A stretch of DNA of 56,010 nt, the filler included, from Dugesia japonica (Eukaryota), in assembly GCA_001938525.1 (NCBI GenBank). It is 6 parts of 6 records of this genome, joined end to end, with 100 filler letters (N's around TTAATTAATTAA, not from the genome) between each part and the next. Parts side by side here need not be neighbours in the genome. Positions count along the whole stretch, not along the records: positions 9,842 to 19,122 come from MQRL01608121.1; 5 more parts are not named here. The stretch is one strand, 5' to 3'. The notes beneath the pieces were generated by a model. The model ran no database searches, was not told the DNA's origin, and saw only the letters and a list, made by a program, of their open reading frames with translations. The translations under genes were made by a program, and so were the position numbers. Position 1 is the first letter of the stretch; each line of letters opens with the position of its first letter. Shown here one piece after another: positions 11,756 to 16,964 of the stretch.

Positions 11756-12195
11756 NNNNNNNNNNNNNNNNNNNNNNNNNNNNNNNNNNNNNNNNNNNNN
11801 AAAATATGATGAGCCTCAAATATTATTTTTTTTAACAAATATGAAATTATTAATATTATAATTATAAATTTTATAATTATTATTAATAACATTACTATTA
11901 TTATTAATATTATTATTGTTAATATTTGTATTATTATTATTATTATTGTTGGGGTCCCACCTGAGTTGAGTGACACTCAAGGGTGGCTGGGGAAAAGCAG
12001 CTTTCAGGGGAACCCTCTCAAGAATTTACCTTACTGTCGTTGTGGTAGGTTTTTTGTTTATGGTGGTTGACCTTACGCTTAATGGAAGGTACGCACCGAT
12101 AAACCTTTGGATTCGGGTTCAATGTTTTCCCTATCGTTATTAACAGAAGAAATGAATTACCGATTTGATTTCATACATTTATTTTAGTAAATTAT

Positions 12196-12577
12196 TTACA
12201 ATAAATCCAGTGCCCCTGGATCCAACCACTGGTTTGGTTCTGTCACCAAAAAATTGAAAGCAGCTATTTTATCTTCATCATCCCATTGCGTTACGGTTGG
12301 GTTACCTATTTGTCGGGACAGATCAGCAATGTATTGCTTCAAAATTCGATTTTCCGCTGTAATAATTGTTTATTTTCATTCTCTAACGTCTTTGTCTGAA
12401 TCGCAAGGTCGTGCTGCTTTTTTATAACCAAATCCAATTTTTTAATAAGCTGGTCTCGTTGGTCAAGGTGCTTTAATAGAGCTTTGTCTGCTTTGCGCTT
12501 CAGATGTCTTTCAATAAGAAGGCGTCGTAGAATTCGGTGACATCTACGAAGGTTGTTGGGGAAGATAATTCATGGCA
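12196..12577 (-). pseudogene. LTR-borne terminal exon C, coiled-coil-like protein (1 stop, 1 frameshift)
   Basis: Acceptor TTTTAG|, phase 1; LLKHLDQRDQLIKKLDLVIKKQHDLAIQTKTLENENKQ/AENRILKQYIADLSRQ; AATAAA at 12178-12183 (minus). Confidence 0.55.
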
Positions 12578-12705
12578 CTAAAATAAGAACCATTAACAGA
12601 GAAACATTAACAATTATTATAATCAAATTTATTTTGTATTCAATGATGTAAAGGAACTGAAACCAAGATTAAGATGTACAAAATTCTATTTATAGGAAAT
12701 AAAGT

Positions 12706-13073
12706 TCAAGCACGTAGATTGGTTTTGGTCTGGCTAGCCTTATCAATCATAAGTGGTTCCAGATAAGACTTAGTCTTGAGAAGTAGGATGTCTTTGACCA
12801 GTTTATTCTCACGGTCATGCCTGGACCGGATAATTTCAGCGAATGATTTCACCTGTGCCTTCCAAGCTCTCTCTTGGTCCTGCACAACTTTCATCTCTTC
12901 CCGGACATTCGTGCACTTGGTTTTGTACCGTTTTACCTTAGCATTGGCTGTAGCGATCTCTGCTTCCCACAGCCTCTTAGCTAATTTGTCTAGGTCCCAA
13001 GTAATCTCCTTATCTTCACTATCTTCGCGTAATTTTTTAGTCGGGGCCTGCGATCGATTCAACGACGAGTGCA
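12706..13073 (-). CDS. LTR-borne terminal exon B, coiled-coil-like protein (open)
   Basis: Acceptor TTTCAG|, phase 1; open frame VHSSLNRS...LAKRLWEAEIATANAKVKRYK...; AATAAA at 12628-12633 (minus). Confidence 0.6.
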
Positions 13074-13227
13074 CTGAAATGTAAATGTAGTAAAGTTTAA
13101 GAATTCTAATTAATATGAGGTATAATTCGAAAACACGACCAAACAAGGTGGATCAATAAATATTCGACACTAAAGAAACAGAGAAAAAACAAGGTTTTTA
13201 TTTAAATTTTATTAGACAGTAGTGAAT

Positions 13228-13664
13228 TTACACGAGTGCATCAGTGTGATCTTCTGTTGCATTCTCGTTGTTATCGTTGACCATCGCATTTCACACACCC
13301 CATAGGTTGTTTTGTACTAAAGACGATAACTGGGAAGTAGGAGGTAAGAGATTTGTGGTGAGACCCACTAATGAGGAGCCGCCGTGCCATACACGTTCTA
13401 TTTGCGGTATTTTGGCTGATCGCTCAAAGGAAAGTGGTGCTGGTGGAAAAGCGACTCTATCTCTTCTCGGTCCACACCAACTATAGTAAGCAGCACGTTC
13501 TGTCGCGTCCCACTGTCTTTCCTCGGCTGCCTGTTCGGATGAAAAATTAGAGTGTTCCACCAAAACACCGGCATTCCTATTGTATGGATTCCGATATCTT
13601 TTAAACGTCGTTCGACCTGAATGAACATTCAGGCATACTTCTCATTTGTATTCCATATGAATCT
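13228..13664 (-). pseudogene. LTR-borne terminal exon A (unknown protein, ~144 codons, 2 in-frame TGA)
   Basis: Acceptor TTGTAG|, phase 1, in frame with ORF 13291..13563; stop at 13228; AATAAA at 13208-13213 (minus). Confidence 0.55.
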
Positions 13665-15981
13665 CTACAATTAACGAGGAGTAATACTATAATTAGAATT
13701 AGTGAGAATGGGTTAGATAACTAGTTCATTTTAGAGGAAATTAATTTATAATTACAATGAGACAAAAGGTTTATTTTACAGCAATTTTGTACAAACGATA
13801 CGACAGGAAAACAATCTTTTAAGTGGATATTACCCGCACGAATTAGAACATCTGGTTATTCCTCGTCTATATCAACTCTGGTNNNNNNNNNNNNNNNNNN
13901 NNNNNNNNNNNNNNNNNNNNNNNNNNNNNNNNNNNNNNNNNNNNNNNNNNNNNNNNNNNNNNNNNNNNNNNNNNNNNNNNNNNNNNNNNNNNNNTTCAAA
14001 TAGTATTAATCTCAACATTTTGGTTAAAGGATCGATCATTTTGGTGAGTTTTCTGGTAAAAACAAAAATATTGAGCATGTATCATATTAAAAAATGGTAG
14101 TAATTTAGTTGGACCTTATTTTTATCGCTATCAATATTTTCTGATGTTTACCCTAGAACCGTACTGTACGAGGTTTATCTTTATGGAATCCCATAAATTA
14201 GAAGATCATCACTTGTTGGATAAAGTTATATCTAACTGAATTCATTTCGTAACTCTATCACATCAATATTCATGTTTCATAATAAAAACAAAGTATCCAT
14301 TTATGAAATTACGGGTATACAGCACGTAAGAAAATAATTTTAATTTAGGAAATAGATTTGATTTTAATTAATTAACTAAATTTTAACANCAATAATTGTT
14401 CATTAGAGTTAATTATCACATTTAAAAATTATACCGCAGTTATTTTACCATTAGCAACTCTCTAGGTTACACACAGGAGATGTTCAGTTTAACGTATGTC
14501 ATCTCTATTTACCAGTGGAGCATGTTTGTTGGTCAGATAGACGAGCAACATCGTCAAATCCATTGACGAGTCATCTAATCATGTGTGTTATGATCTCTTA
14601 TTTAGATATTTTCANNNNNNNNNNNNNNNNNNNNNNNNNNNNNNNNNNNNNNNNNNNNNNNNNNATTTTAACAACAATAATTGTTCATTAGAGTTAATTA
14701 TCACATTTAAAAATTATACCGCAGTTATTTTACCATTATCAACTCTCTAGGTTACACACAGGAGATGTTCAGTTTAACGTATGTCATCTCTATTTACCAG
14801 TGGAGCATGTGTGTTGGTCATATAAACGAGCAACATCGTCAAATCCATTGACGAGTCATCTAATCATGTGTGTTATGATCTCTTATTTAGATATTTTCAG
14901 ATTGCATCAACACATCATTTACAGAGTTACTGATGTAACCGGTGTGATTGAATAACATATGAAAATCAATTATTTTCATTATCGGAACTCATCGTTGCAC
15001 TTTATTGAAACTAGATATTAACAAATTATGATTATTGTTCGTTGGCCTTCGACATTTATGTGGATATTTCTTTCTCGGATTGTTTAAAGNNNNNNNNNNN
15101 NNNNNNNNNNNNNNNNNNNNNNNNNNNNNNNNNNNNNNNNNNNNNNNNNNNNNNNNNNNNNNNNNNNNNNNNNNNNNNNNNNNNNNNNNNNNNNNNNNNN
15201 NNNNNNNNNNNNNNNNNNNNNNNNNNNNNNNNNNNNNNNNNNNNNNNNNNNNNNNNNNNNNNNNNNNNNNNNNNNNNNNNNNTAGCTGGGTTAGTTATTT
15301 GATCTGGCATATTTTAATGAGGCAAATTAATATCCTTGCTGTTGTGAATGTATGGTAGTCAAAACAGAATTGAAGCTGTATTGGGGTCCTAATTACTTTT
15401 TGAAATTAACGTTAGGAAGTTCACAACTAAATTTTTTTAAATAAAAAATAAAATCATATAAAAAGTTGTATTATTATTTGCATAACTAAGATTACAAAAT
15501 AAACCATAATGAATATTTTATTTTTATTTATAATATCAAATTTATACGTATAAATCATTGATAATATATTACAACAGCCTTTTTATGAAACAATCATTTA
15601 ATTCATTTAAAATAAAAATTACTTCTATGTGGTTTCCGATGGGTAACTAAAAGAGTTCTACAACGGTGAATATGGGATGCCAATAGCTGATCGACTGGTT
15701 CCGTAAATCCTTTCTCTCTTTAACTTGAGCGGGAATCGATTTTATAATTGATGATTATTATAACTCCCTTGTTCCTAACAATGACTTTCTAAATCAAATG
15801 GTTTAATGATGAAGAAATTGCTGGTTTTACTAGCTACTTGATGTAATAATGGCTGCTGATGGTGATGGTTGCGCTTTTCGTTTTCTCGAAACTTGAAATA
15901 AATTTTCTTATGATATAGCGTTAAATTGACAGAGTTCACAGGTTATGATTTTTTATTAATTATCTCAAATTGGAGGGTTCC

Positions 15982-15988
15982 TTTTATA
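15982..15988 (-). promoter_or_regulatory. TATA box of the giant LTR, preceded by CCAAT boxes
   Basis: Minus strand CCCTATAAAAGG; CCAAT motifs near 16112 and 16180; same relative position as in the shorter LTRs. Confidence 0.6.
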
Positions 15989-16964
15989 GGGTTTGACTTA
16001 CACCCCGACTTCTTTTAGATTTGCTGATTATTTTTAGATCAGCCCTCTTTTGATTTCATTTGTTTCATCGTCAAATTTCTATAATTTTCTGCAAATTTTG
16101 GTGCCATGATTGGCAGCTATTTTTATCAGGCCACAAGACATTTGATTCTTTGTTATATTTTTATTTTTAGGTTTTCTATTGGCTGGATCTTGGAAACCTT
16201 GCAGTACCCTTCTGGAAGGTGGTATGTTTTCCTTCTTTGGAATTTACTTGCACCTGGATGTTCTCTCTTCATTTTTTCTTGTCCGAGTTCTTGGAGCAAA
16301 GTTATCTGGGTAAAACCGAATTTTCAACTAATTTCGCTTCTTTTTATTTTAAAATTAATTAATTTTCTTTTGCTAATTAATTATTTTCCATATTGCTTTT
16401 CTTTGTTGTTTATTATTAATTAATTAATTTTTCTTAATTTCCAAATGCAAATTGCTTCTATGTTAACTTGTTCTTCATCTTCTTCTTGGACTTTAGTCGT
16501 TCTCTTCTAAGAATGATGACATGTTTTATATTTCATTATTGATACTTATAGAGGTTCTACTATTCTTTGCCGTCGATTTGGCTTTTGGCCTTATTCTCGT
16601 TTAGCAAGTGTTTCACCCCAACATTATTATTATTAATTATTTTCAACTTTTTTCAAACAGAAATATTACTTATTATTATCAATAATATAATAATTAATAA
16701 CATTACTACTAAATTTTTATCATTTTAAACAATTATTATTTAATATAGATATAAATATTATTTTTTAAAAAATATTTTTTTATTCTTATTACCTTTTCAG
16801 TTATTAAAAACTTTCATTAACGCAAACATTATATATTGGTTAAATATATCAAATCAATAAAGAAGAGACAACAAATTCAATGAAATAATTTTATTTACAA
16901 TAAACACAATATCAACAAGATTAATGTCAAATTTTCTTTTGTTTTTTTTTCTATATCGGATTCA

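Follow-up and report, generated by a model that had tools for sequence, protein, structure and literature searches.

A candidate solo LTR of Dugesia japonica whose small reading frames may serve as alternative last exons

Introduction

Long terminal repeats (LTRs) of retrotransposons are usually seen as regulatory DNA, and the formation of a solo LTR as the loss of the element's genes. An element in the genome of the planarian Dugesia japonica (assembly GCA_001938525.1) raises the question of whether an LTR can carry genes of its own. It occupies positions 11947-16623, on the minus strand, of the window, i.e. the whole stretch of 56,010 nucleotides (nt) that was analysed, which consists of six parts joined end to end. 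Behind a promoter-like region and a predicted non-coding leader it contains three modules (M1, M2 and M3), each with an acceptor, a reading frame and a polyadenylation (poly(A)) signal. The interpretation we favour, at close to even odds (about 0.48), is that the element is a solo LTR, now decayed, from a multi-copy family of Ty3/gypsy type, and that the three frames would be alternative last exons of the one leader. With selected frames within the repeat, recombination to a solo LTR would leave the genes in place, along with their promoter, splice sites and poly(A) signals. If true, this would be a route by which a retrotransposon could scatter genes for small orphan proteins, in many copies, over a host genome.

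Reading frames of the modules

YAG acceptors precede positions 13664, 13073 and 12577, at which the frames of M1, M2 and M3 begin. The modules have a GC content of 45%, 46% and 40%, respectively, versus 26-36% in the spacer bins, and the distance from the stop codon to the next AATAAA is 14 nt in M1, 72 nt in M2 and 12 nt in M3 (the mean AATAAA spacing in the window is 292 nt). The phase-1 frame of M2 contains no stop in 121 codons, where 7.2 are expected, and none of 1000 dinucleotide shuffles is as low. The same phase has two stops in the 144 codons of M1 (P 0.015) and one in the first 77 codons of M3 (P 0.04), all three frames having been picked after looking at the sequence. M1-M3 are not mutual copies, the best match, between M2 and M3, having an E value of 0.04-0.07. 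An earlier, sequence-only reading of the window had found the internal stops of the modules compatible with decay of CGA codons. All three are indeed TGA, but the window has a CpG observed/expected ratio of 0.95, and because CpG is thus undepleted, methyl-CpG decay is not indicated.

When M1 is compared with another copy, the 26 listed of 40 differences are distributed 8:3:15 over the first, second and third codon positions in phase 1 (P 0.009), so that M1 is likely to have been selected as a protein. The rate of change is 0.16 at non-degenerate sites versus 0.42-0.47 at degenerate sites, a pattern absent from the other minus-strand frames, and the eleven listed differences behind the candidate donor show no period (3:5:3). 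We are confident that the modules have been selected as protein, and the case is best for M1 and M2. That they behave as coding sequence is seen in the fully open M2, the codon bias of M1 and, for M3, the stop count. In the present copy, which is decayed, M1 and M3 are broken, and judging from its frames it could at most make M2. More decayed modules had been thought possible at 13.76-15.0 kb; there is one candidate, at 13770-14052, and no readable frame elsewhere in 14.1-15.4 kb.

M2 is modelled as a single helix of 108 residues (predicted local distance difference test (pLDDT) 86, predicted template modelling score (pTM) 0.47), and the model of M1 is unusable (pLDDT 36). No transmembrane or hydrophobic stretch is found in M1-M3, the maximum 19-residue hydropathy (KD19) being 0.22-0.85; an sORF2/FAST-like or env-like accessory protein was considered and fails, as no module has a transmembrane segment. 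M2 has no relatives in a 90%-clustered protein set (66-212 amino acids (aa)) or among 1.84 billion representatives, none of its 236 pattern matches in metagenome contigs was confirmed, and its Atlas matches are unnamed clusters with low recognition (1395). For M1, a protein search (79-252 aa) found no relatives, and there is no Pfam family and one chance PDB match (E 0.92); the Pfam matches of M2 and M3 are all under the cut-off. These blank searches say little on novelty, because a TRAF-like host gene in the window is likewise without a match at 1e-10 among longer proteins, and the host may be absent from, or poorly represented in, the sets.

Antisense to M2, at 12767-13084 on the plus strand, lies a 105-codon stop-free frame, for which codon use may account. 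If the library is stranded, most of the few RNA first mates share its direction.

Leader and proposed mode of expression

Neither the first 59 codons of M2 nor the whole of M3 contains an in-frame Met, and therefore a splice would be needed for their start; the open frame ahead of the M2 acceptor is also without Met. The predicted leader of 333 nt has no ATG, versus 2.6 expected by dinucleotide shuffles (P 0.035) and 5.1 by base shuffles (P 0.003). The sense-strand ATG-free run to which it belongs, 16056-15607, also takes in the TATA box and stops 16 nt behind the candidate donor; its 450 nt exceed every other of the 1874 such runs counted on the two strands of the window, and four of the 1874 reach 400 nt. 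TG stands behind YAG at 113 of 2021 sites in the window, yet at both of the modules that lack an early Met (M2 and M3). The M1 acceptor is not followed by TG, and an ATG lies 8 nt behind it.

The sequence-only reading had noted a common splice phase of the modules. In this copy it cannot stand for a shared leader peptide, as no ATG lies between promoter and donor, and a non-coding leader with an AUG made by the splice accounts better for it. A shared coding leader in this copy is ruled out by the same observation, together with the lower conservation of the leader relative to the modules; the leader is conserved poorly, as a 5' untranslated region would be.

In the mechanism that we propose, transcription would begin near 15955 and the donor at 15623/15622 would join one acceptor at a time. 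The leader's final A and the exon's TG would form the start codon of M2 and M3, M1 and the candidate fourth module would use the ATG that each has shortly after its acceptor, and each message would finish at its module's own AATAAA. Genomic RNA would require the 5' LTR to be read through, plausibly by way of U1 on the donor as in foamy viruses. The products would be small soluble proteins, two of them helical and charged; our best guess, made without homology, is that they are oligomerising adaptors for the element's RNA or particle or for host silencing. The motifs CCAAT, TATA and AATAAA are present and may mark out U3, R and U5, with RNA start and end positions predicted from them. Inspection bore out the CCAAT and TATA boxes, the earlier positions of the element ends, the acceptors, frames, stops and AATAAA signals, and also the candidate donor sequence A|GTAATT at 15623/15622, behind which the GC content steps down.

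Given an LTR-like element and selected modules, we consider alternative last exons with a splice-made start somewhat more likely than not. A more general model is held tentatively, at a little under even odds: accessory genes may have moved into the LTR as a cassette array, with one promoter, a non-coding leader whose last base completes the start codon, and acceptor-frame-poly(A) cassettes that subfamilies could gain, lose or interchange. On this model any solo LTR would amount to a self-contained unit expressing several proteins, present in many copies across host microsatellites, and unrelated families of this genome may show the same design (modules at 22.9-23.8 kb).

A dispersed multi-copy family

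The element begins with TGTTGGGGTGAAACAC at 16623 and finishes with GGGACCCCAACA at 11947, so that its ends are the inverted sequences TGTTGGGGT...ACCCCAACA, 9 bp with TG..CA. An (AAT)n tract flanks it on both sides. ATAA adjoins each end, which is compatible with a target duplication of 4 bp, not 5 or 6 bp, and in a tract of period 3 amounts to no proof. No direct repeat was found when the two element ends were compared with each other. One contig in the X7 data, with a depth of 40.7 (low-copy pieces in X7 have 3.5-10), joins 16623 to 11949 across 13 nt of AAT, i.e. head-to-tail copies in one microsatellite.

Four sequencing runs were aligned to the element at 85% likeness. Among them, X1 represents DNA contigs, of which 3909 lie on the element: 419 at 99% or more, 595 at 95-99%, 1589 at 90-95% and 1306 below 90%; 337 extend over the element ends. 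Summed DNA depth, which is no copy number and serves as a contrast alone, is 956-15389 in the U3-like region, 19665 in the 3' tail and 856-38570 in seven bins within modules, versus 152, 326 and 1157 in three spacer bins. From 13663 to 15846 it is 15-136, with exact-match pieces at 35-40. The ends and modules are thus common to many relatives, and the spacers, leader and middle are not. Transitions are the commonest changes in X1 (287 of 458 places). A contig that is 9% diverged (40 differences in 448 nt) covers the start of M2, the spacer and M1 in unchanged order, and the array is therefore not confined to the present copy. All this makes a dispersed, multi-copy, LTR-like element highly probable. 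Elsewhere, 16-mer end motifs gave eight chance matches in viral contigs and none in metagenomes, and Rfam gave one chance match, below threshold.

The sequence-only reading had also found the U3 start, promoter and U5 motifs shared with the LTRs at 33039 and 48794, with about 3 kb extra here. The same LTR with 3 kb added is not supported: in the promoter regions and last 250 nt, 7-19 of 100 shuffles match those elements as well as the real sequence does. Two comparisons score above all 100 shuffles, that of the first 120 nt with 33039 and that of the entire element with 48794, and across the U3-like part weak matches to both (E 6e-9 to 0.09) keep a collinear order. Between themselves, the 33039 and 48794 elements have 62-70% likeness. 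By these comparisons the element appears to belong to a different family, with only distant kinship.

Starts of the TGTTGGGGTGAAACAC type occur at 16623, 33039, 46131 (a stub) and 48794, in diverged families at AAT-type sites, and three of them lie in (AAT)n at ATAA/TTAT, which points to targeting of this microsatellite by an integrase lineage. At 50223-50240, immediately after the CA with which the 48794 element ends, TGAG is followed by TGGCG.., which we take to resemble a primer-binding site (PBS), and then by truncation into a microsatellite; no tRNA gene was found in the window. The common start motif together with the PBS-like TGGCG.. at 48794 supports an LTR lineage and fixes its orientation.

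Points against the interpretation, and alternatives

A number of results weigh against a solo LTR with alternative last exons. Two raw RNA runs, each read in part, gave 4 reads from 10.5 million (about 6% of the run) and 16 from 13.6 million (about 25%). None of these 20 is 99% alike and all are partial on the stretch, so they come from diverged relatives and this copy was not seen expressed. Not one shows use of the donor at 15623/15622 or a leader-to-acceptor joint. In the X22 data, first mates in the module bins are mostly on the minus strand (summed depth 2.20 versus 0.56), which would mean RNA antisense to the modules if the library is of the standard stranded type. The candidate donor, GAA|GTAATT, matches the consensus incompletely. 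AATAAA also occurs within M2 (12807) and M3 (12374) and at ten further places. The phase of M3, which the sequence-only reading had put with the other two in phase 1, is uncertain, as phase 0 is open for 25 codons and phase 1 stops at codon 2; there is also a frameshift near 12340, where the length differs in other copies among the DNA contigs.

The ATG-free test and the test of TG behind acceptors were both devised after looking, the codon-position test of M1 covers one contig, 26 of 40 differences and 95 nt of M1, and the final third of M1 has a low summed DNA depth (152). No piece among those listed crosses the gap at 13883-13994, and one joint from 12196 to 15941, with a short side of 20 nt, hints at copies without the array. 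No full-length parent with paired LTRs, and no reverse transcriptase (RT), was found for the element. Lastly, a U5 of about 3 kb would demand a very long strong-stop DNA, and the interpretation poses the problem of how so long a U5 is copied and how the 5' LTR is read through past many poly(A) signals.

The RNA reads are not evenly placed. Oligo-dT reads of relatives occur in five of eight module bins versus one of 22 other bins (Fisher P 0.002), with none in the deep 3' tail bin, a concentration partly due to the modules being what relatives share. No position has at least five RNA 3' ends among the 20 reads. The X7 data, guessed to be RNA, have a depth that follows DNA (Spearman 0.90); they were treated as DNA-like and provide no RNA test.

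The alternative that survives best, itself unlikely, is a solo LTR whose selected accessory frames are expressed otherwise than from this leader, i.e. by messages that remain unspliced and end at internal poly(A) sites, like sORF1 of the MDG1 group, by internal promoters, or by a splice from a coding exon in another part of the full element. M1 and M3 each have a TATA-like box just ahead of them (13750 and 12694, respectively), M1 has its own ATG, junction reads were not seen, and the available text of PMC11952523 describes for MDG1 elements an RNA that is unspliced and has its poly(A) site in the interior. On the other hand, unspliced messages would leave the first 59 codons of M2, the frame ahead of its acceptor and the whole of M3 without a Met, and the ATG-free run stops just behind the donor.

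It is rather improbable that the repeat is a whole non-autonomous element, such as a short-inverted-repeat transposon or a deletion derivative, with captured or accessory frames. The identical (AAT)n flanks, the inverted ends, the missing parent and the head-to-tail contig across 13 nt of AAT would all fit such an element, but the inverted repeat is just 9 bp, the ends have no direct repeat, and the promoter anatomy is collinear with that of the shorter elements, one of which is followed by the PBS-like motif.

We give a still lower place to a composite, i.e. a short LTR that an unrelated insertion has divided, or a wrong join across the gap at 13883-13994. The depth of the middle (13663-15846), near the exact-match level when the ends reach 10000-20000, the uncrossed gap and the contig joining 12196 to 15941 are in keeping with it; M1-M3 and the 3' tail, however, have no gaps in the window and a high DNA depth, listed pieces connect 14175-15948 across two gaps, the two halves are co-oriented and complete one element, and three short-sided joints tie module sequence to the leader region in other copies. 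Very improbable, finally, is that the modules are non-coding GC-richer patches with frames by chance, to which the lack of protein relatives, the low Atlas recognition and the broken M1 and M3 might point, given the stop-free M2, the codon bias of M1 and the conservation of modules above spacers.

Feature coordinates, assembly and neighbouring sequence

The features of the candidate solo LTR are collected in Table 1. Three N gaps and a lone N fall within its 4677 nt. The gap at 14615-14664 sits inside a 235-bp duplication, which is an assembly artefact: one DNA contig jumps 285 nt (14540-14826) there, and the same contig crosses the gap at 15090-15282. The real length of the element is therefore about 4.4 kb.

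Table 1. Positions in the window of the element and its parts, with the observations on each
Feature	Position	Strand	Observations
Whole element, candidate solo LTR	11947..16623	-	9-bp inverted TG..CA ends; multi-copy in DNA contigs
U3-like region	15990..16623	-	Motifs: A-rich, AT block, CCAAT at 16182 and 16113; weak collinear matches to the 33039 and 48794 elements; summed DNA depth 956-15389
TATA box (CCCTATAAAAGG)	15982..15988	-	Sequence; putative function
Predicted non-coding leader exon	15623..15955	-	Predicted start about 30 nt behind TATA; ATG-free; DNA depth low, 78-136
Candidate splice donor GAA/A|GTAATT	15617..15622	-	Boundary 15623/15622; GC falls from 41% to 15% directly behind
AATAAA pair, candidate end of R	15517..15528	-	About 95 nt behind donor; putative role; AATAAA frequent in surrounding AT-rich DNA
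Duplication of 235 bp around 50-N gap	14380..14899	.	98% alike; assembly artefact
Candidate fourth module	13770..14052	-	CAG acceptor; own ATG 14039; AATAAA 13775; interrupted by gap 13883-13994; low DNA depth
M1, 144 codons	13228..13664	-	Own ATG 13656; internal stops at codons 7 and 124; AATAAA 13213
M2, 121 open codons	12706..13073	-	TG directly behind acceptor; first Met is codon 60; AATAAA 12633
M3	12196..12577	-	TG start; no in-frame Met; stop at codon 2; frameshift near 12340; charged, helical-looking; AATAAA 12183
U5-like tail finishing GGGACCCCAACA	11947..12165	-	Summed DNA depth 19665; no RNA reads in last bin

Five identical N44-TTAATTAATTAA-N44 linkers (at 9742, 19123, 27632, 36946 and 46189), spaced by about 9 kb, are artificial joins, and adjacency across them is unreliable. 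One of them, at 9742-9841, separates the element from a PDE4-type phosphodiesterase exon (9008-9622, plus strand; UCR1 match), so that an intronic position of the element is not established. The TRAF-like gene mentioned above (27842-30362, plus strand) is intron-poor and has zinc fingers, a coiled coil and a MATH domain; its first part is duplicated exactly around a gap. Remnants of a DNA polymerase/integrase region, of a transposase and of further gypsy pol lie at 17034-19120 (-), 35341-36989 (-), 47140-48180 (+) and 25415-27630 (-); they presumably include Maverick/Polinton and mariner elements.

A second decayed Ty3/gypsy element, at 20409-23970 on the plus strand, has RNase H and integrase remnants; beyond these come a purine tract near 22385 and then, amid AT-rich spacers, two modules of higher GC content. 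A TTAG precedes each of the modules, the first at 22868 (96 codons, one stop) and the second at 23556 (TG start, helical-looking, AATAAA near 23843). They have no likeness to M1-M3 and no Pfam family, and may represent the grammar of M1-M3 in an unrelated family.

Comparison with known systems

Accessory frames in LTR elements are well known, but in the available parts of the sources cited below they are described in the internal region. An LTR with an array of spliced last exons was not found in the literature surveyed, which does not cover Grohme et al. 2018 with its supplement or Repbase, where such frames may already be annotated.

The env gene of the Drosophila errantivirus gypsy offers the closest likeness for the start codon, being an accessory protein expressed from a spliced RNA in which the splice makes the start codon (PMC2585583, in the part available). 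It differs in being one env gene 3' of pol, with a donor in the gag region and an AT|G split, whereas here several small non-membrane frames with their own poly(A) signals lie in the LTR and the predicted split is A|TG. The MDG1 group (412, mdg1, Stalker and Blood) shares small accessory frames and an internal poly(A) site: its sORF1 and sORF2 lie between promoter and gag and are expressed, as far as the accessible text of PMC11952523 goes, from a short transcript without splicing. In contrast to those unspliced frames, of which sORF2 encodes a membrane protein, the present ones have a maximum KD19 of 0.85 and lie ahead of the CA end of the repeat.

In the foamy virus LTR a donor lies upstream of the poly(A) signal, and U1 binding suppresses 5' polyadenylation (PMC3694450, in the portion available); the candidate donor here is likewise about 95 nt ahead of the first AATAAA pair. 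The foamy virus U5 is not known to contain coding exons. The CERV Cer1 of C. elegans and LTR elements of plants and rotifers encode lineage-specific accessory proteins, often from spliced RNA and without outside homologues, according to the available sections of PMC10309623, PMC7264820 and PMC5408684. The position described there for these additional frames is internal, for the most part between pol and the 3' LTR, and solo-LTR formation removes them.

Among planarian elements, the giant gypsy-like Burro/GYPSM1 elements have thousands of copies, a total length of >30 kb with up to 25 kb internal, long LTRs and accessory open reading frames (PMC6431247; also PMC11410931, PMC8532177 and a Dugesia preprint, each as far as available). 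The size of the present element fits, and the host DNA is AT-rich with many gypsy, Maverick and mariner remnants. The likeness is one of description, and the available text of PMC6431247 places the accessory domains in the internal region and does not mention frames in the LTR. Burro has a polyprotein of about 5000 aa and env-, BIR- and BCL2-like domains, whereas no internal region is linked to the element studied here.

Coding sequence within an LTR is known from sag of mouse mammary tumour virus and nef of human immunodeficiency virus, each of them a lone frame placed in U3 ahead of the LTR promoter. The accessory genes of foamy viruses sit before and in U3 and have an internal promoter. The adenovirus major late unit, which belongs to no retroelement, is organised in the way proposed here: alternative bodies, with alternative poly(A) sites, are spliced to a single non-coding leader.

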